From a virus (lineage: Duplodnaviria > Heunggongvirae > Uroviricota > Caudoviricetes): a DNA stretch of 7,066 nucleotides. The stretch covers positions 1-7,066 of IMG/VR virus record IMGVR_UViG_2531839200_000011; one strand, given 5' to 3'. Under the pieces are notes generated by a model. It did not search any database and was not told the origin of the DNA. It saw nothing but the letters and a program-made list of their open reading frames with translations. Positions 1 to 7,066 of this stretch are shown one piece after another (the stretch's first letter is position 1; each line of letters begins with the position of its first letter). The translations under genes were made by a program, and so were the position numbers.

Positions 1-210
1 ACGTTCAGCGCTGGTGAGCCCACCATCACCGCCCCCGGTATCCCGCTCATGCTGGCGAACCCAGACACGCAGAGTCTCCGGCGTACAGCCAATCTTTGGG
101 GCAATGGAACAAATTGCCGCCCACTGTGAGTCATATTCATCCTGACTTTCCAGAACCATACGAATCGCCCGCTGACGGACTTCGGGGGAAAAACGAGTAT
201 TTTTAGTCAT
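1..210 (-). CDS. IS3-family transposase OrfA (HTH subunit), N-terminal 70 codons; 3' part lies outside the window
   Basis: ATG at complement 208-210, preceded on the minus strand by GAGG-containing AGAGGTAAACAGG. The translation is a characteristic IS3-family OrfA N-terminus. The frame is open to the window edge. Confidence 0.85.
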
Positions 211-264
211 CCTGTTTACCTCTTTCTCAGGGAGTTTAGTCTCCAGGATTTCCGGGGCGGTTCA
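1..264 (-). mobile_element. Partial IS3-family insertion sequence (IS629/IS1203-like), left-end terminal inverted repeat at about 211-264; the element continues beyond the window start
   Basis: The minus strand of 1-210 translates to [70 protein letters not shown], which matches from memory the N-terminus of IS629-type OrfA. The reverse complement of 211-264 starts TGAACCGCCCCGG, a typical IS3-family TG terminus. Base composition and coding change abruptly after about 264. Confidence 0.8.
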
Positions 265-497
265 CTCAGGCTGAAATAGGTCGTTATATGGGGGTCGCTC
301 AACAGACGGTTTGGCAATGGTTTAGCTTTGGCGTTCCCCCAAAGCAGGTAATTCCGTTATGCCAACTAATGAAGTGGGAAGTTACCCCGCATGAAATCCG
401 CCCAGATATTTATCCTAACCCAACCGACGGTTTACCTGTTGGATGTAAGGTTAACACATCAAATGCGCCGGAGTTGATTCATGAAAATCAAGCATGA
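265..497 (+). pseudogene. 5'-truncated cro/ydaS-type HTH regulator gene, interrupted by the IS insertion
   Basis: The frame is open from the IS junction to the TGA at 495-497 and reads ...QAEIGRYMGVAQQTVWQWFSFGVPPKQVIPLCQLMKWEVTPHEIRPDIYPNP.... This has the recognition-helix signature (GVxQQxVxQW) and the C-terminal 'RPD' motif of YdaS/Cro-like proteins. The N-terminal helices and promoter are missing. The ATG at 288 is probably an internal Met, not the native start. Confidence 0.6.
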
Positions 498-906
498 ACA
501 CATCCGCATGGCGATGAATGCCTGGGCGCATCCGGACGGCGAAAAAGTACCGGCTGCGAAAATTACCAAAGCGTATTTCGAGCTGGGAATGACGTTCCCG
601 GAACTGTATGACGACAGCCATCCGGAAGCCATGGCTCGCAATACTCAGAAAATTTTCCGCTGGGTGGAGAAAGACACTCCTGATGCGGTTAAAAAAATTC
701 AGGCGTTGTTACCAGCGATCGAAAAAGCGATGCCGCCTCCGCTGGTGGCCCGAATGCGCAGCCACAGTTCCGCTTATTTTCGGGAGTTGGTAGAGACGAA
801 GGAACGGCTGGTGAAAGATATTGATGATTTCGTTGCATCAGCGATCGTTCTGTTCGATCAGATGAATCGTGGTGGCCCGGCAGGAAACACTCTGGCTGTG
901 CATTAA
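481..906 (+). CDS. ydaT: YdaT-family protein (lambdoid prophage early gene; putative CII-like/toxin-like protein)
   Basis: 141-aa ORF beginning MKIKHEHI and ending ...VH, the characteristic start of Rac-type YdaT as I recall it. GGAG lies 8 nt upstream. The start overlaps the 3' end of the cro-like remnant, consistent with an operon. Confidence 0.7.
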   Translation: MKIKHEHIRMAMNAWAHPDGEKVPAAKITKAYFELGMTFPELYDDSHPEAMARNTQKIFRWVEKDTPDAVKKIQALLPAIEKAMPPPLVARMRSHSSAYFRELVETKERLVKDIDDFVASAIVLFDQMNRGGPAGNTLAVH

Positions 907-919
907 TTGGGTAATAAAT

Positions 920-1429
920 ATGAGTAATGACAAAAAATTGACACTGAGCGTTTACGAAAACAGTCCGCACATCTGGCGTGGCGGTTTATCTGATGTGGAG
1001 CTGGCAGAGTGGTTGATACATAAAGCTAATGCGCTGCTCTGGCGTTTGTCAGCCAGAGAACAGCGCAAGGAAACCAGAATAAAGCTGGCTGATGCAGAAG
1101 CGTGTGCCGGGCTTATTGAGGATTATACAAATCTTGGTATTTCTTCAGCAGAGAGTGATCCCATTCAGCCTCTGAGCAGGGAGTCAATCCAGCACGCTGG
1201 TTGTATGGCACATCTTGTAACTGCTCGTCAACATGAGGTGGGTATTGGATCACTTCCGGCGGGATATTCGCTGATTCCAGAGCTGGTTGAAGCAAGAAAA
1301 TCAGTTCAGAAAAAGAGAGATGACGCACTTCAATTATTGAGAGAGCACTATGGCGCGATACCAGAATGCGAACAGCGTCGATACCCTGAAGGTTATGAAT
1401 GGATGCAGTCTCTTTTTGAAGTTCGCTAA
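920..1429 (+). CDS. Hypothetical prophage early protein (169 aa)
   Basis: ATG at 920 lies 13 nt after the ydaT stop and the frame is open to TAA at 1427-1429. Composition is protein-like (MSNDKKLTLSVYENSPHIWRGG...). No family recognised. The track ORF starting at 869 overlaps ydaT and is probably an artefactual 5' extension. Confidence 0.5.
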   Translation: MSNDKKLTLSVYENSPHIWRGGLSDVELAEWLIHKANALLWRLSAREQRKETRIKLADAEACAGLIEDYTNLGISSAESDPIQPLSRESIQHAGCMAHLVTARQHEVGIGSLPAGYSLIPELVEARKSVQKKRDDALQLLREHYGAIPECEQRRYPEGYEWMQSLFEVR

Positions 1430-1646
1430 TCAATATGTCGAGACGAAGGTATGTTTCGGCGCGCAGCCAGGCTCTGTAATCCGGGAGCATTTCGGGGCTG
1501 TTACACCAGCGGTTTGTTGCTGCAACATTTAATACATGAGCCTGATAAAGGCTTTTCAAAAAATACATGTCGAACCTCCTCTGGTTCTGTCGATTGGGAA
1601 CCACAGATTATATCCGGAGGAAGGTTCGGCACCAGATGAGGTAGCC

Positions 1647-2738
1647 ATGCGTGATTACGCAAAAGTTTCTCCGCGATTCTGGCTGGGAGAAACGGGGAGA
1701 GAACTTAGAAAGGCGGGTGCAGAAGCGCAAGTTGTTGCTTTTTACCTGATGACATCCCCTCACGCAAATATGCTGGGTTTGTATTACCTGCCAGTTTTAT
1801 ACCTTGCTCATGAAACCGGGCTTGGTCTGGAAGGGGCTTCAAAGGGGCTTAAAAGGGCTGTTGAAGCTGGTTTTTGTAGCTATGACCATGATGCAGAGAT
1901 GGTCTGGGTCCATGAAATGGCAGCCTGGCAGGTTGGGGAAACGTTGAAGCCTGGCGATAACCGTTGTGCAGGTGTCAGGAATGAGTATGCATCATTACCT
2001 GAAAACGCTTTTCTGTCAGTGTTTTACGACAGATATAAAACGGATTTCCATCTGGATGTGAGGCGGAATAATAGCCGAAATTCGGTAAGGGGCTTCGAAG
2101 GGGCTTTTAAGGGGCTTCGAAGCCAAGAACAGGAACAGGAGCAGGAGAAAGAACAGGAACAGGACAAAAACACTATGGTTCATGGCAAAAAAAACACCAC
2201 GAACCAGGCAGGGGATGTTCAGACCGTCAATCCTGGTCAGCCAGCAGGCACGACACCGGAAGCCGATTCGGGCGCTGTGCAGCAGGTGATGACCGCAGGG
2301 TCGGAGCAATCACACCAACTGCAGCAGCCTGAAGCCGATTCCGCCATTCAGCGGGAAGCCGATCGGGTAGTCCCGGAAAGCACCGGGCAGTCTGTGGGAC
2401 GAGTGGATTATCCGGATGTGTTCGAACAGGTCTGGCGGGAATACCCGTTGCGTGCTGGGGCAAACCCGAAGAAATCCGCTTTCAGTGCCTGGAAGGCCAG
2501 ATTGCGCGAGGGGGTGCCACCAGAGACCATGCTGGATGGTGTGAGGCGTTACGCGAGATACCTGGCGGCGACCGGGAAAGCGGGAACGGAATTTGTTCAG
2601 CGAGCGACGACGTTTTTTGGGCCGGACCGGAATTTTGAAAACCCCTGGTTGCTCCCGGTAAGCGGCACGAACAACCAGCGTTGTGTGAATCATATTTCTG
2701 AACCGGATACCGAAATTCCGCCGGGATTCAGGGGGTGA
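1647..2738 (+). CDS. Phage replication initiator / replisome organiser with DnaT-like (primosomal protein 1) C-terminal domain
   Basis: The ATG at 1647 has GAGG 6 nt upstream; an alternative in-frame ATG at 1536 has no SD. The C-terminus ...VNHISEPDTEIPPGFRG matches the C-terminal signature of E. coli DnaT from memory. The N-terminal part (MRDYAKVSPRFWLGETGREL...) resembles YdaU/DUF1376-type phage replication proteins. The gene sits immediately upstream of a DnaC paralog, mirroring the chromosomal dnaT-dnaC pair. Confidence 0.8.
   Translation: MRDYAKVSPRFWLGETGRELRKAGAEAQVVAFYLMTSPHANMLGLYYLPVLYLAHETGLGLEGASKGLKRAVEAGFCSYDHDAEMVWVHEMAAWQVGETLKPGDNRCAGVRNEYASLPENAFLSVFYDRYKTDFHLDVRRNNSRNSVRGFEGAFKGLRSQEQEQEQEKEQEQDKNTMVHGKKNTTNQAGDVQTVNPGQPAGTTPEADSGAVQQVMTAGSEQSHQLQQPEADSAIQREADRVVPESTGQSVGRVDYPDVFEQVWREYPLRAGANPKKSAFSAWKARLREGVPPETMLDGVRRYARYLAATGKAGTEFVQRATTFFGPDRNFENPWLLPVSGTNNQRCVNHISEPDTEIPPGFRG
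1831..1860 (+). repeat. Three tandem 11-bp repeats AAGGGGCTTnn (third copy degenerate) inside the replication gene
   Basis: Read directly: aaggggcttc(a) at 1831, aaggggctta(a) at 1842, aagggctg at 1853, with 11-bp periodicity. Confidence 0.5.
2087..2124 (+). repeat. Three perfect-core tandem 11-bp repeats AAGGGGCTTnn plus palindrome GGCTTCGAAGCC; candidate iterons of an internal origin
   Basis: Read directly: aaggggcttcg (2087-2097), aaggggctttt (2098-2108), aaggggcttcg (2109-2119). ggcttcgaagcc (2113-2124) is a perfect 12-bp palindrome. The core is the same as in the 1831-1860 cluster. Confidence 0.5.
2127..2168 (+). repeat. In-frame hexanucleotide repeat (GAACAG)n-like, 7 units, encoding an EQEQEQEKEQEQDK linker, followed by an A-rich tract
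   Basis: Read directly: gaacag gaacag gagcag gagaaa gaacag gaacag gacaaa. It is in frame with the 1647 start. An A-rich stretch (gcaaaaaaaacacc) follows at about 2185-2198. Confidence 0.9.
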
Positions 2739-2744
2739 TGTGGC

Positions 2745-3491
2745 ATGAAAAACATTGCGGCAGCCGGGGTTCTTGAACGTATTCGCAGACTTGCACCACA
2801 GGCGTCGGTTCCACCGTACCGGACGGTGGAGGAGTGGCGGGAATGGCAACTTGCTGAAGGACGAAAACGCAGCGAGGAGATTAACCGCCAGAATCACCAG
2901 TTGCGGGTGGAAAAAATCCTGAATCGTTCGGGCATCCAGCCTCTGCACAGCAAATGCTCGTTTGCGAATTATCAGGTGCAGAACGACGGGCAAAAATACG
3001 CGCTGAGCCAGGCCAAATCCATAGCTGACGAACTGATGACCGGGTGCACGAATTTTGTGTTCAGCGGTAAAACCGGCACCGGGAAAAATCACCTTGCAGC
3101 GGCGATGGGTAACCGGCTGATGGCGAAGGGGCGCAGCGTGATTATCGTCACCGTGTCTGATGTCATGAGCGTGTTGCATGACAGCTACGACAACGGCAAA
3201 TCCGGGGAAAAATTTTTACAGGAGCTTTGCAGTGTTGATTTGCTGGTCCTGGATGAAATAGGCGTTCAGCGGGAGACGAAAAACGAGCAGGTGGTATTAC
3301 ACCAGATAATTGATCGCCGGACAGCATCACTGTGCAGTGTCGGGATGTTAACAAACCTGAATCATGCCGCAATGAGTACACTTCTTGGTGAGAGGATTAT
3401 GGACCGCATGACCATGAACGGTGGTCGATGGGTGACGTTTAACTGGGATAGCTGGCGTCCAAATGTCAGCAATATGAGGGTTGTGAAGTAA
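2745..3491 (+). CDS. dnaC: DnaC-family replicative helicase loader (prophage DnaC paralog, YdaV-like)
   Basis: The 248-aa ORF starts 7 nt after the upstream stop, with a GGGGG tract upstream. Walker A FSGKTGTGKNHLAAA has the unusual GKN also found in E. coli DnaC. Walker B is DLLVLDEIG. The C-terminal stretch GMLTNLNHAAMSTLLGERIMDRM...WVTFNWDSWR is closely DnaC-like from memory. Confidence 0.9.
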   Translation: MKNIAAAGVLERIRRLAPQASVPPYRTVEEWREWQLAEGRKRSEEINRQNHQLRVEKILNRSGIQPLHSKCSFANYQVQNDGQKYALSQAKSIADELMTGCTNFVFSGKTGTGKNHLAAAMGNRLMAKGRSVIIVTVSDVMSVLHDSYDNGKSGEKFLQELCSVDLLVLDEIGVQRETKNEQVVLHQIIDRRTASLCSVGMLTNLNHAAMSTLLGERIMDRMTMNGGRWVTFNWDSWRPNVSNMRVVK

Positions 3492-3512
3492 TTTTGTCCG
3501 GAGGAAATTTTA

Positions 3513-4283
3513 ATGGAAACCGTATCTGACGCACTGAAAGCACTGAAAAAAGCCTCTTCACATGTGGTGGCAGCTCGCCTTGGAATCAGTCGTGAAGAGG
3601 CTGTCAACGAGCTGTGGGAACTCAAAATAAATGGCGTCGTTGATAAAACTGGTCACACCTGGTTTCTGGCTGGCGAAGGTGAATCCCGGGTAACCGAAGA
3701 GCGGCCAGTAAAATCTGAAGCACAGGATATGCTGACCGGGGAGGTCGAACAAAAAGTTACCGCAGACATGATGATTGAGTTTATCGGTCAGGATGGGGCT
3801 AAAACGTGTGAGGAACTGGCGGGTAAGTTCGGTGTCAGTACTCGCAAGGTTGCTTCCACGCTGGCGGTGGTAACCGCAACGGGGCGGCTGGCACGCGTTA
3901 ATCAGAACGGTAAATTTCGTTACTGCATGCCGGGCGATAATTTACCAGCAGAGCCGAAAGCCGCGCTGGTAACGGAAAGTGATGGTAAGGCCTTTCCTCA
4001 GCCAGCAGGTGCTGCGTTACCAGTCCGGGAAGCCGCAACACAGGAAGAAATTAAAACAGAAACTGTGGCGGACATTGTGCAGCCGTTGCCATCGTTTACC
4101 GAAACGCAAGCAGATGAGCTGATTTTTCCGTCCCTTCGCAGGGCAAACCTGGCGCTGCGCAGGGCGAAAAGTGATGTTCAGAAGTGGGAGCGAGTCTGCG
4201 CCGCGCTGCGGGAGCTGAACAAGCACCGGGATATTGTTCGACAGATTACTGATTCTTCCCGCCGTGTTGTATCGGAAAAGTGA
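3513..4283 (+). CDS. Hypothetical prophage protein (256 aa) with two predicted winged-helix-like modules and a basic/coiled C-terminal segment
   Basis: GGAGG 8 nt upstream of the ATG and a long open frame. Two internally similar segments, ...VAARLGISREEAVNELWELKINGVV... and ...ELAGKFGVSTRKVASTLAVVTATGRLARV..., are followed by an acidic linker and RRANLALRRAKSDVQKWERV. Confidence 0.7.
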   Translation: METVSDALKALKKASSHVVAARLGISREEAVNELWELKINGVVDKTGHTWFLAGEGESRVTEERPVKSEAQDMLTGEVEQKVTADMMIEFIGQDGAKTCEELAGKFGVSTRKVASTLAVVTATGRLARVNQNGKFRYCMPGDNLPAEPKAALVTESDGKAFPQPAGAALPVREAATQEEIKTETVADIVQPLPSFTETQADELIFPSLRRANLALRRAKSDVQKWERVCAALRELNKHRDIVRQITDSSRRVVSEK

Positions 4284-4298
4284 TTGCCGGAGGCGCTT

Positions 4299-4712
4299 AT
4301 GGCAAAAGTATTTACACAGGAAGAGCGGGAAAAAATTAAAGGGCAGGTTGTTGAGCTAGTACGCCGGAGTGGGCGCGAGACGTTACGGCAACTGGAAGCC
4401 AAGACAGGTGCGACAAGATATCTGATGAGCGTTCTTGCCAGAGAGCTGGTTGCCAGTGGCGATGTATACAACTCTGGTTACGGGTTATTCCCATCTGAAC
4501 AGGCTCGTAAGGACTGGCAAAACGCCCGCAAAAAACTATCGAGGGCAAAACTGAAGAAACCGGTTGTGGTTGATCCTGACCTTATCTGGTCATTACCAGA
4601 CGGAGAAATACGCCGCTATGACAGGCAATTGAACATAATTTGTAGTGAGTGCCGTAACAGTGAAGTGATGCAGCGAGTTTTGATATTTTACACAGGAGTA
4701 ATGATGGAATAG
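4299..4712 (+). CDS. Hypothetical prophage protein (137 aa) with one winged-helix-like module related to those in the upstream gene
   Basis: ATG at 4299 with GGAGG 6 nt upstream, 15 nt after the previous stop. The segment VVELVRRSGRETLRQLEAKTGATRYLMSVLARELVASGDV follows the same pattern as the upstream modules. The track start at 4284 would overlap the upstream stop. Confidence 0.65.
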   Translation: MAKVFTQEEREKIKGQVVELVRRSGRETLRQLEAKTGATRYLMSVLARELVASGDVYNSGYGLFPSEQARKDWQNARKKLSRAKLKKPVVVDPDLIWSLPDGEIRRYDRQLNIICSECRNSEVMQRVLIFYTGVMME

Positions 4713-6060
4713 TGAAAATAACATGAAACCTTTGGATTCTGGTGTTTCAGTGGATGGGAAAAGAGCAGATACATAGAAAATGAATAGCAATAATTCACAG
4801 TCTGGATGTTGTTTGTATGCTTATAAAATGATCCTAGTATGCATTGCCGGAGTTGAATCAGCTCCAATGAAGAAACTGAGAGGAGTATTTAGAAGATAGC
4901 TAAATGGATGTAATTATTAGTATCTAAAAAATAGTATTTTTGAAATGGGTCTAAGAACACAACAATGTACAAATGAGAAGTTATCTTTTAATATGTTCAA
5001 AGACCCATTAGGATTGATATCAGTTATGTTAGCTAGATTGATAAAGTGATTACATATTTTCTGTTATATGCTGAAATGAATAATGCTATTCCAGAGTGCA
5101 GCAGAGAAAGTCTCCTGATGATTGAGCTCTGGAAATTGTACAATAGAAAAATTACTGTATTTTTCTGTCAAAATATTTCTCAAAACAGATTCCGCTTTGA
5201 TGGCTTCAGGATATAAAGATGCGGAGTAATCAAGGCTAAGATTTCCGTTAAGCAAGCATATACTTTTAGTGTGCTTTGATTCTGATATATCATCTTTAAT
5301 TATCTTGATGATTCTTTCATTCTGCCATAGAAGTGATGGTGCAGATATATAATAATAGTTAAAGCATGAATTATTTTTTAAGCAATCAAGCACAAAAATA
5401 GCACCTAGCGAGTGCCCCCATATACCGATTCTGGAACTGTTCGGAGCAATAGTACTAACCCATGGCATGATCTGAGTTAGTAATAATTCTCGGAAAGACT
5501 GGCTTCCTCCACCAGTAAAGTAGATCCATGCTGGTTTAGAGTTATCAACAATAGCATTTTCACCATCAGGAGTATAATCGTAAGCACGGCGATGAATGCT
5601 AAGGTTATTCCAAGATTCATAACCAAGTGTAACTAACACTGGTGGATTGGGTAGTGCATCAATAACAGGCAGAATATCAGAAATGTAATTGTTGGCACTA
5701 TTCCCATCAAGTATATAAAGAGTTGCATTATTTTTTTTAATGTTTTTTGGAGTAAAAATACATATTTTATATTTGGTGTCATGGTTAATTGAGTTAAATA
5801 TGCGTGTTTGACAATGAATGTCCATATGTTTAGTCATGCGTTCTCCCCATGAGCATTAAAGGATGCTTAAGATATGCTATGTCACTGATAAAAAATTTGT
5901 TGTGTGTGTTTAGTTATTTTATCTACCTCCATTATGATTTAAGACTGATATATGTTATCAGCAAAGGTACATCGTTATTATTTTACCTGTCAATACATTT
6001 GATATTGATTATCGTTTACATCGCTTGCTTAGGAAATTGAAGGCAGGTAACTATCATGTC
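4713..6060. other. AT-rich island (moron-like cargo insertion) between the phage replication module and the hok locus
   Basis: Composition shifts sharply to AT-rich sequence across this interval. It holds a single convincing gene, on the opposite strand to all flanking phage genes, flanked by non-coding AT-rich DNA. Confidence 0.7.
5064..5837 (-). CDS. Alpha/beta-hydrolase, esterase family (PF00756-like 'putative esterase'; Fes/IroE/esterase-D-like fold), encoded in an AT-rich island
   Basis: 257-aa ORF on the minus strand; on that strand the start is preceded by GGGGAGAACGC, i.e. a GGAG about 5 nt upstream. Nucleophile elbow G-H-S-L-G (IGIWGHSLGA), an upstream YILDGN motif and a C-terminal His (ELNHQETF) fit a Ser-Asp-His esterase. 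No obvious N-terminal signal peptide. G+C looks roughly one-third by eye versus above 50% in flanking phage genes. Confidence 0.75.
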   Translation of the reverse strand: MTKHMDIHCQTRIFNSINHDTKYKICIFTPKNIKKNNATLYILDGNSANNYISDILPVIDALPNPPVLVTLGYESWNNLSIHRRAYDYTPDGENAIVDNSKPAWIYFTGGGSQSFRELLLTQIMPWVSTIAPNSSRIGIWGHSLGAIFVLDCLKNNSCFNYYYISAPSLLWQNERIIKIIKDDISESKHTKSICLLNGNLSLDYSASLYPEAIKAESVLRNILTEKYSNFSIVQFPELNHQETFSAALWNSIIHFSI

Positions 6061-6319
6061 AATGAACTAACCCACAGTCTAACGTACTTCTTTCCCCAAT
6101 CACCAACAACCAAATTCCTGTTATCACCACTGGGATTTTGGCGCAACTTCATGGTGCAGAGGTAAATAGCATCAAGCAAAATCTCTTTTTCCGTTGTTGT
6201 CCTTATGGGACGTCTGTCTTTCTGACCGATTTCATATTGGCGAGGTAATGGGAAGTTAAGTAGAATAGCTGCGGGTGCTTGAGGCTATCTGCCTCGGGCA
6301 TGAACACCAACGGCAGATA

Positions 6320-6400
6320 GAGAAAAGCCCCAGTTAACATTACGCGTCCTGCAAGACGCCTAACATTAATCTGAGGCTCAATCTATGAACGGCAAATCTA
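6320..6400 (-). ncRNA. sok: Putative Sok-like antisense RNA region (approximate), antisense to the hok leader / upstream ORF start
   Basis: Inferred from hok/sok architecture. On the minus strand near 6390-6430 there is TTGCCT, a 17-bp spacer, then TAACCT as a weak promoter-like pair. A stem-loop (atctgcc...ggcagat, 6286-6319) lies in the leader. The boundaries are not determined. Confidence 0.3.
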
Positions 6401-6441
6401 GGTTAGCCTCTTACGTGCCGAAAGGCAAGGAGAAGCAGGCT

Positions 6442-6597
6442 ATGAAGCAGCAAAAGGCGATGTTAATCGCCCTGATCGTCATCTGTTTAACCGTCATAGT
6501 GACGGCACTGGTAACGAGGAAAGACCTCTGCGAGGTACGAGTCCGAACCGGCCAGACGGAGGTCGCTGTCTTCACAGCTTACGAACCTGAGGAGTAA
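6442..6597 (+). CDS. hok: Hok/Gef-family type I toxin (51 aa membrane peptide), near-identical to RelF/HokD as recalled
   Basis: The translation MKQQKAMLIALIVICLTVIVTALVTRKDLCEVRVRTGQTEVAVFTAYEPEE is a canonical Hok-family sequence. An in-frame upstream ATG at 6385 gives the 70-aa track ORF, which may be the leader or a Mok-like reading frame. Confidence 0.9.
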   Translation: MKQQKAMLIALIVICLTVIVTALVTRKDLCEVRVRTGQTEVAVFTAYEPEE

Positions 6598-6664
6598 GAG
6601 ACCTGGCGGGGGAGAAATCCCTCGCCACCTCTGATGAATCAGGCATCCTCAACGCACCCGCACT

Positions 6665-6692
6665 TAACCCGCTTCGGCGGGTTTTGTTTTTT
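6665..6692 (+). terminator. Rho-independent terminator of the hok transcript
   Basis: aacccgc-ttcg-gcgggtt hairpin followed by the T-run ttttgtttttt, about 70 nt after the hok stop. Confidence 0.8.
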
Positions 6693-6764
6693 CCTGGCAT
6701 TCTGGTTTACAATTCGCACGCCAGCCTGAACAACTGGCACCTGCTGCGCCAGCAGAGAAAACAG

Positions 6765-7043
6765 ATGGCGCACGATACCAAATTATACAATTCGGATAAC
6801 TCTGCCGCCCCTGCCAGCAGGCACGGACGGCGTTCTCACGCATTCAAATCTGACTGGTACCAGCACCACCCATGCACCGAAGAACAGGCCGAATGGCTCA
6901 TTCAGTGTTACCGCAGGCGCGGATACGAGGTTAAAAAAGCCCTCAGCCTCGACTACCGTCACTGGATAATCTCCGTCAGGCTCCCTTACTCCGAACGCCC
7001 ACCGCGTCCGTCCCGCACATTCCAGCAACGCATCTGGAGGTAA
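6765..7043 (+). CDS. Hypothetical small basic protein (92 aa)
   Basis: ATG at 6765 downstream of the hok terminator; the track start at 6684 is a TTG inside the terminator and is unlikely. Translation: MAHDTKLYNSDNSAAPASRHGRRSHAFKSDWYQHHPCTEEQAEWLIQCYRRRGYEVKK.... Its position downstream of hok is analogous to rem downstream of hokD in the K-12 Qin prophage, but I cannot verify sequence identity. Confidence 0.5.
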   Translation: MAHDTKLYNSDNSAAPASRHGRRSHAFKSDWYQHHPCTEEQAEWLIQCYRRRGYEVKKALSLDYRHWIISVRLPYSERPPRPSRTFQQRIWR

Positions 7044-7044
7044 C

Positions 7045-7066
7045 GTGCGGGTATTACTTCGACCTG
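7045..7066 (+). CDS. Possible 5' end of the next gene (GTG start), truncated by the window end
   Basis: GGAGG at 7036-7040 is followed 4 nt later by GTG at 7045 with an open frame to the window edge. Only 7 codons are visible. Confidence 0.2.

Follow-up and report, generated by a model that had tools for sequence, protein, structure and literature searches.

What does a single hydrolase gene, read leftward in a block of AT-rich DNA, do inside the rightward early region of an Escherichia coli prophage? The question is raised by a stretch of 7,066 nucleotides (nt) from IMG/VR record IMGVR_UViG_2531839200_000011 (positions 1 to 7,066; the whole stretch is hereafter called the window). The source is an Sp4/CP-933M-type lambdoid prophage of E. 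coli O157:H7: many O157:H7 genomes are 99.7% identical to the window, and at least 80% of it is covered in 419 genomes. The gene encodes 257 amino acids (aa) and appears in databases as ECs1077 (strain Sakai, 'hypothetical protein'), as RefSeq WP_000160654.1 ('alpha/beta hydrolase') and as phrog_8493. An initial interpretation from the DNA letters (the sequence-only reading) had taken it for the cargo of a moron and offered siderophore or acyl-ester hydrolysis, phage defence and counter-defence as its possible functions. On balance, and with modest confidence, we favour a moron carrying a catalytically intact, cytoplasmic, IroE-derived esterase that would act on enterobactin-type catecholate siderophores and would be expressed from its own, possibly Fur-controlled, promoter.

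Judged by its sequence, the protein is a distant relative of IroE and belongs to the IroE branch of siderophore esterases. A phmmer search of the PDB gave IroE (2gzr) as the top match (E=5e-26, query residues 8-253), followed by BES (E=9e-13) and PfeE (E=1.5e-11), with weaker matches to fungal siderophore esterases and to an 'IroE-like' Shewanella protein. In a BLASTP comparison with an authentic IroE encoded on a plasmid (within iroBCDEN, where iroE lies between iroD and iroN), it shows 29% identity across 254 aa (E=3e-26). Residues D44, R84, S143 and H240 align exactly with D90, R130, S189 and H287 of IroE, and a family alignment of 126 sequences shows little or no variation in the same four columns. 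The Ser nucleophile elbow GHSLG (residues 141-145), the LDGN motif (residues 43-46) and the C-terminal His (His240) had been pointed out before and are all present; RAYDYTP and LDGN are common to the prophage protein and IroE. Roles of Asp90 and Arg130 in IroE were reportedly described by Larsen et al. in 2006. The catalytic dyad of IroE is Ser189-His287 (PMC10515146), with which the Ser and His of the prophage protein coincide.

The profile libraries were less informative. Pfam PF00756 (Putative esterase) scored 17 bits (E=0.005), under its 22-bit gathering threshold; NCBIfam gave no match, the PADLOC-DB defence models none at E<=1, and PHROGs returned phrog_8493 alone, a family of unknown function. 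As a control, authentic IroE reached 31.5 bits on PF00756 and matched no NCBIfam model, and the Pantoea relatives reached 40-48 bits on PF00756, a model that covers this branch of the family badly. Because authentic IroE is itself weak in Pfam and invisible to NCBIfam, these negatives carry no weight.

The predicted structure points the same way. An AlphaFold2 model built on the family alignment (predicted local distance difference test, pLDDT, 91.5; predicted template modelling score, pTM, 0.91) is a single-domain alpha/beta-hydrolase whose fold is closest to those of siderophore esterases. In a Foldseek search of the PDB, with template modelling (TM) scores normalised to the query, ranks 1-30 are all siderophore esterases (PfeE, IroE, BES, EstA, EstB and IroE-like; TM 0.73-0.81), the best fold match being PfeE (TM 0.80, E=9e-20); after rank 30 the scores fall sharply to esterase D and feruloyl esterases (TM ~0.56). 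The viral structure library contained only generic alpha/beta-hydrolases as matches (TM <=0.56). Since no close structural relatives other than IroE, PfeE, BES and fungal siderophore esterases came up, sequence and model favour siderophore-ester hydrolysis among the functions first offered. The earlier label 'esterase/lipase-type' survives in its first half, on the strength of the IroE homology; the lipase half was rejected, as no lipase occurs among the close sequence or fold matches.

In one respect the protein departs from most of its family. A hydrophobic N-terminal leader is found in 98 of 123 relatives, and ~45 extra N-terminal residues, in which the hydrophobic leader is joined by an 'RPDMxPLGxNIADxGS' segment, occur in IroE and in the relatives nearest to the prophage protein (Pantoea, Methylophaga and metagenomic). 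In the prophage protein itself a hydrophobic segment is missing (maximum 15-residue N-terminal hydropathy, KD15, -0.38), and a longer N-terminus is impossible because an in-frame stop lies 7 codons 5' of the ATG. All alleles begin MTKHMDIH. In a neighbour-joining tree the protein lies on a long branch among leader-bearing gammaproteobacterial IroE-type proteins and not with the leaderless minority, a placement that is merely indicative because bootstrap support is weak and some distances are saturated; it suggests that the leader was lost. Lacking one, the protein should stay in the cytoplasm. The active cytoplasmic hydrolase that had been proposed is thus upheld at the level of sequence and model, by the catalytic residues aligned with IroE, by purifying selection and by the lack of a leader.

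Two of the nearest relatives outside E. coli have a siderophore-related setting. The closest of them (P0020) adjoins entE/entB/entA-like genes, two TonB-dependent receptors and an FecCD importer, and another (P0031) adjoins a TonB-dependent receptor (the two loci are L026 1-7377 and L030 4545-6518).

Genome surveys show that the gene is optional. It is carried by 471 of 5426 complete E. coli genomes, whereas one or both of its flanks are present in ~4283; it is therefore cargo and not a backbone gene. In 467 of the 471 carriers the match is in a single place and covers at least 80% of the gene length. The carriers listed are mostly O157:H7 and other Shiga-toxin serogroups. The slot is the same in every locus examined, namely the Sakai, O26, PNUSAE145743 and pig-strain records and 18 of 18 IMG/VR loci, and in all 18 of these prophage loci the order is DUF977, cassette, hok/sok. 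In the phage genome collection no carrier was found, its four protein matches being bacterial contigs or fragments with authentic iroE. No close relative occurs among 185,579 species-representative genomes, and in a collection of 15 billion proteins all sequences more than 50% identical come from E. coli, full-length or as fragments, the next relatives being ~31-33% identical.

Three allele groups were distinguished: A (the window), B (92.6% nucleotide identity) and C (90.6%), the last exemplified by a Rac-like prophage of a pig commensal strain, which has other replication genes. The 774-nt open reading frame (ORF) and residues D44, R84, D87, H142-S143 and H240 are retained in all three. The ratios of nonsynonymous to synonymous divergence (dN/dS) are 0.17 for A-B, 0.16 for A-C and 0.25 for B-C, at dS up to 0.32, indicating that the gene is under purifying selection; as every allele is leaderless and keeps the catalytic residues, selection has acted on the leaderless form. 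The 253 nt 5' of the ATG are 88-99% identical between alleles, which fits a constrained regulatory region. Allele B (L017/L018) is a mosaic relative to the window, with 98-99% identity upstream and over the first 130 nt of the gene, 86-89% in mid-gene and 78% in the 3' spacer, which indicates recombination within the cassette.

The features of the locus are as follows.

4284-4712, plus strand: left neighbour, DUF977/Ren-like exclusion protein, backbone (PF06163, E=4e-27; phrog_142).
4691-6217, no strand: AT-rich variable block, made up of the cargo cassette and the right-hand junction (from relatives' homology and G+C).
4713-5063, no strand: 3' spacer of the cassette; alleles 76-78% identical, about as at synonymous sites (proportion of synonymous differences, pS, ~0.26).
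4944-5009, minus strand: long imperfect hairpin, then a U-rich run (inverted repeat I3, 16-nt arms, 88% complementary), ~55 nt past the stop codon.
5064-5837, minus strand: coding sequence of the predicted leaderless IroE-family serine esterase, 257 aa (from ORF, homology, model and dN/dS).
5843-5848, minus strand: Shine-Dalgarno sequence GGGGAG, 6-11 nt before the ATG, identical in the three alleles.
5931-5958, minus strand: predicted sigma-70 promoter, ATAACA-16 nt-CATAAT (9/12 in a consensus scan); both hexamers kept in A, B and C.
5946-5960, no strand: Fur-box-like site 2, TGATATATGTTATCA, 11/14 to TGATAATnATTATCA; second-best in the window; overlaps the predicted -35.
6000-6019, no strand: Fur-box-like site 1, 12/14 to the 7-1-7 motif and 15/19 to GATAATGATAATCATTATC; best in the 7-kb window.
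6091-6217, no strand: junction segment, dependent on allele group, without counterpart in allele C loci.
6273-6597, plus strand: right neighbour, hok/sok type I toxin-antitoxin module, backbone (Rfam and Pfam).

Composition sets the block apart. In 300-nt windows the G+C content is 0.29-0.36 across ~4650-6150 and roughly 0.47-0.57 elsewhere, a clear trough. Taken as a whole, 4713-6190 has 0.34, against 0.511 for all DNA to its left and 0.535 for all DNA to its right; the hydrolase gene has 0.345, with 0.283 at third codon positions (GC3). The drop far exceeds the spread among the flanking genes. An AT-rich island with single-gene cargo, as first described, is therefore real, although not every backbone gene lies above 50% G+C as had been stated (the ydaS-like gene has 0.467 and DUF977 has 0.478).

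The limits first given to the island, 4713-6060, had to be redrawn by comparison with relatives without it. In the island-free phage HannyBb, backbone homology to the window runs to 4690 and restarts at 6218, which sets the block at 4691-6217. The BL21 prophage, where ~100 bp separates a truncated DUF977 from hok, was rejected as an empty site: its homology ends at 4595, so that a deletion reaches into DUF977, and for this reason HannyBb was taken for the left edge. A search of the cassette ends revealed neither direct nor inverted terminal repeats. The segment common to all hydrolase alleles extends to 6090, and the junction beyond it holds a gene or pseudogene fragment annotated by the Prokaryotic Genome Annotation Pipeline (PGAP; ~6100-6183; annotated in L001 and L006). 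Allele divergence suggests that the 3' spacer is DNA mostly without constraint, and short ORFs in the cassette spacers gave zero family matches. At the right end of the block, before hok/sok, a plus-strand terminator-like hairpin (6198-6212, TGTCCTTATGGGACG) is followed by a T-rich run.

Several predicted signals suggest that the cassette may be expressed on its own. Both top Fur-motif matches of the window fall within 260 nt 5' of the gene. The score of site 1 is reached by ~0.5-0.7% of composition-matched random regions, and the palindrome of site 2, CTGATAACATATATCAG, is identical in the three alleles while its flanks vary; these sites would suit an iron-regulated gene but are no proof of one. 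Past the stop codon, the hairpin at 4944-5009 has a fold energy of -27.5 kcal/mol (z = -2.87), with arms kept in the diverged allele, and is probably the terminator of the gene. The foreign G+C, the opposite orientation, the gene's own ribosome-binding site (already noticed in the sequence-only reading), the predicted promoter and terminator-like hairpin, and carriage by 471 genomes against ~4283 with flanks agree with the moron interpretation. One candidate lead on expression was set aside: Z1341 of strain EDL933, reported in a microarray study as an 'unknown protein of CP-933M' that was induced together with exbB and chuU upon contact with epithelium, has no established link to ECs1077 and is not used as evidence (Z1344 of the same strain is the RusA endonuclease).

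The mechanism that we propose is accordingly conditional on these predictions. A self-contained cassette would have been acquired horizontally into a nin-like variable slot that extends from the Ren-like DUF977 gene to hok/sok. Its protein, an IroE-branch esterase minus the N-terminal leader or anchor, would stay in the cytoplasm, where a Ser143-His240 dyad aided by Asp44 and Arg84 may hydrolyse ester bonds. The substrate would most likely be enterobactin-type catecholate trilactone siderophores, or linear or modified forms of them, and a lysogen could thereby gain a second intracellular siderophore-processing activity resembling that of Fes or IroD. Leftward transcription would probably start at the cassette's own promoter, which may respond to iron through Fur, and would not depend on the early operon, which is repressed.

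Comparison with characterised esterases shows how far each of them resembles the prophage protein. IroE, of the iroBCDEN cluster (PDB 2GZR/2GZS), is the best sequence match, likewise a single-domain alpha/beta-hydrolase with a Ser-His dyad plus Asp and Arg. It differs in its ~45 extra N-terminal residues (leader/anchor) and in its iroBCDEN context; the prophage protein has neither, is less than 30% identical and is encoded at 34% G+C. IroE is periplasmic and converts iron-free enterobactin and salmochelin to linear trimers, whereas Fes and IroD are cytoplasmic (PMC7403778). PfeE of Pseudomonas aeruginosa, the top fold match, and Cee of Campylobacter have the same single-domain architecture but only 20-23% identity to the prophage protein; both are periplasmic ferric-enterobactin esterases linked to enterobactin receptors and regulators (PMC8001512).

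The closest analogue by compartment is BES/BesA, the Bacillus bacillibactin esterase (PDB 2QM0), a leaderless single-domain trilactone esterase with a fold TM of ~0.80 to the model. BesA is located in the cytoplasm. It is ~20% identical to the prophage protein, which groups, weakly, with the leader-bearing IroE type, and its gene stands in a setting of siderophore uptake regulated by Fur. Fes and IroD share the PF00756 superfamily, the presumed compartment and the proposed intracellular trilactone hydrolysis. They are nevertheless ~400-aa proteins with an N-terminal Enterochelin_N lid (PF11806); this domain gave no match in the 257-aa protein (IroD control, E=5e-32), and the fold match of Fes to the model is weaker (TM 0.66-0.69). 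Fes and IroD use a Ser-His-Glu triad (PMC10515146).

A precedent of another kind is offered by the NanS-p type esterases of prophages in Shiga toxin (Stx)-producing and enterohaemorrhagic E. coli (EHEC), which are prophage-borne and may extend host nutrient use. They occupy another prophage position and have a normal G+C content. NanS-p is a sialate O-acetyl esterase, unrelated in fold and substrate. The late region of the prophage studied here (L001 19412-21262) also encodes a SASA-family (NanS-p-type) carbohydrate esterase, so that the prophage has two unrelated esterase cargo genes.

Several observations weigh against an iron-controlled esterase for enterobactin-type siderophores. The protein shares 20-29% identity with the characterised esterases and ~33% with its closest uncharacterised relatives and lies on a long branch, so its substrate may have changed. 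A cytoplasmic copy would not be doing the job described for IroE, because IroE is periplasmic and takes iron-free substrates (PMC7403778). No receptor, transporter, biosynthesis or iro gene is linked to the hydrolase gene, DUF977 and hok/sok being its company at every locus examined, and 3 of the 5 nearest non-E. coli relatives (two Pantoea-type, one from a metagenome run) are orphans without siderophore context. O157:H7 already has Fes, which makes a benefit to the host questionable. In O26:H11 the gene is dispensable, because IS1203 disrupts it there: in strain 11368 (L006 5026-7111) the element lies inside the hydrolase gene, leaving two annotated pseudogene fragments, and annotation summaries of RM8426, 2012C-4606 and 12689 show the same pattern. 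The control signals are also open to doubt. Promoter-like sites in the AT-rich region are no commoner than in shuffled sequence, so the predicted promoter is weak evidence; both Fur-box-like sites come from consensus matching within AT-rich DNA, and in allele C site 1 has 2-3 substitutions (14/19).

Some of these points would be met by a descendant of a siderophore esterase that now hydrolyses another cytoplasmic ester or depsipeptide and has no role in iron acquisition. Candidate substrates would be another xenobiotic, a siderophore-conjugated toxin or antibiotic, or a host metabolite. The long branch, with <=~33% identity to any relative, the orphan context shared with 3 of the 5 nearest relatives, and the change of compartment relative to IroE speak for such a shift. 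However, siderophore esterases account for all close structural relatives of known function, D44 and R84 (residues for substrate and catalysis) match the invariant residues of the family, and the upstream Fur-like sites fit an iron-related role; we consider a new substrate a possible but doubtful account. It is quite improbable, in our view, that the gene is a silent passenger, that is, a truncated relic of a periplasmic IroE-type gene which lost its leader on capture, was silenced in its AT-rich surroundings, perhaps by H-NS, and contributes nothing. H-NS typically binds AT-rich DNA in E. coli, the leader of most relatives is missing here, and literature searches turned up no publication or phenotype. 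Besides the IS1203 disruption in O26:H11, one IMG/VR locus with an otherwise window-type allele (L023 4001-4770) is 773 nt long, 1 nt short, owing to either a frameshift or a sequencing error. Decay is countered by the dN/dS of 0.16-0.25 at dS up to 0.32 with catalytic residues kept in three leaderless alleles, by the single-place matches over at least 80% of the gene in 467 of 471 carriers, and by an upstream region (88-99%) more conserved than the near-neutral 3' spacer (76-78%).

The suggestion of a single-gene effector of phage defence, superinfection exclusion or counter-defence found no support, and we judge it very unlikely. Such a protein might alter the expression or availability of siderophore receptors that serve phages and colicins (FepA, Cir, Fiu, FhuA), or destroy a signalling or defence molecule. 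The prophage slot, which adjoins hok/sok and a Ren-like exclusion gene and is of a kind that often houses accessory and exclusion genes, would suit this, as would the variability of the cargo; yet no PADLOC model matches, there are no partner genes, the best TM in the viral structure library is 0.56, no sequenced free phage carries the gene, and the sequence bears no sign of nucleic-acid or nucleotide substrates. An IroE-derived esterase of catecholate siderophores is the reading that we retain.

The sequence-only reading did not recognise the gene as a described prophage function, and our literature searches agree: none for ECs1077, WP_000160654, phrog_8493 or phage-borne IroE-like esterases returned a publication on the gene. 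The enzyme family and the database entries under generic names were known already; what distinguishes this variant is its lack of a leader, its orphan setting in a prophage and its confinement to prophages of E. coli. Iron acquisition is central to the growth of enterohaemorrhagic E. coli in the gut. To our knowledge, O157:H7 is generally described as being without the iro (salmochelin) system. E. coli has been stated to have no IroE homologue (PMC7403778), and hundreds of sequenced strains have a prophage that encodes a leaderless IroE relative, intact and under selection. If the enzyme is active on enterobactin-type molecules, it would represent a phage-delivered change in how the host handles iron and a simple case on which the idea of a metabolic moron can be tested; if inactive on them, a siderophore-esterase scaffold recruited to a new substrate.

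A bolder version, which we regard as unlikely in full, is that a temperate phage equips its lysogens, by lysogenic conversion, with a cytoplasmic siderophore esterase regulated by iron and so rewires the catecholate siderophore metabolism of its host. Were it true, lysogens might release iron faster or use foreign catecholates, might form linear dihydroxybenzoylserine (DHBS) products that act against oxidative stress, as reported for Salmonella IroE and Fes, and might lower siderophore-receptor expression and so block rival phages and colicins. The gene would then contribute to fitness or virulence in O157:H7, O26 and other carriers in a way that had escaped notice, and no siderophore-processing enzyme encoded by a phage would have had a demonstrated role before it.

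To the left of the block lies a rightward early operon encoding a YdaS-like protein, a YdaT-like protein, a 400-aa replication protein, an IstB/DnaC-like ATPase, DUF1627 and DUF977. The hydrolase gene, first described as the lone leftward gene, is indeed the sole gene of its block; within the window, a second minus-strand gene lies inside the rightward operon at 1113-1604, a 163-aa ORF annotated by PGAP as 'ECs1072 family phage-associated protein', which shares part of its span with the plus-strand ORF 869-1429 and matched nothing in Pfam. The replication protein (1536-2738, plus strand) contains an EQ-rich low-complexity run (SQEQEQEQEKEQEQDK), and its gene is 1203 nt long here, 1092 nt in the PNUSAE145743 and Sakai records and 1116 nt in O26:H11 11368. 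To the right of the block, the hok toxin that had been noted beside it is present as a hok/mok ORF at 6385-6597 (Pfam HOK_GEF, PF01848), with sok at 6273-6447 (Rfam RF01794, 105.6 bits). Between hok and the ORF at 6684-7043, the plus-strand segment 6606-6687 has a sub-threshold Rfam match to isrK, an Hfq-binding small RNA (27 bits against a gathering threshold of 50, E=0.009).

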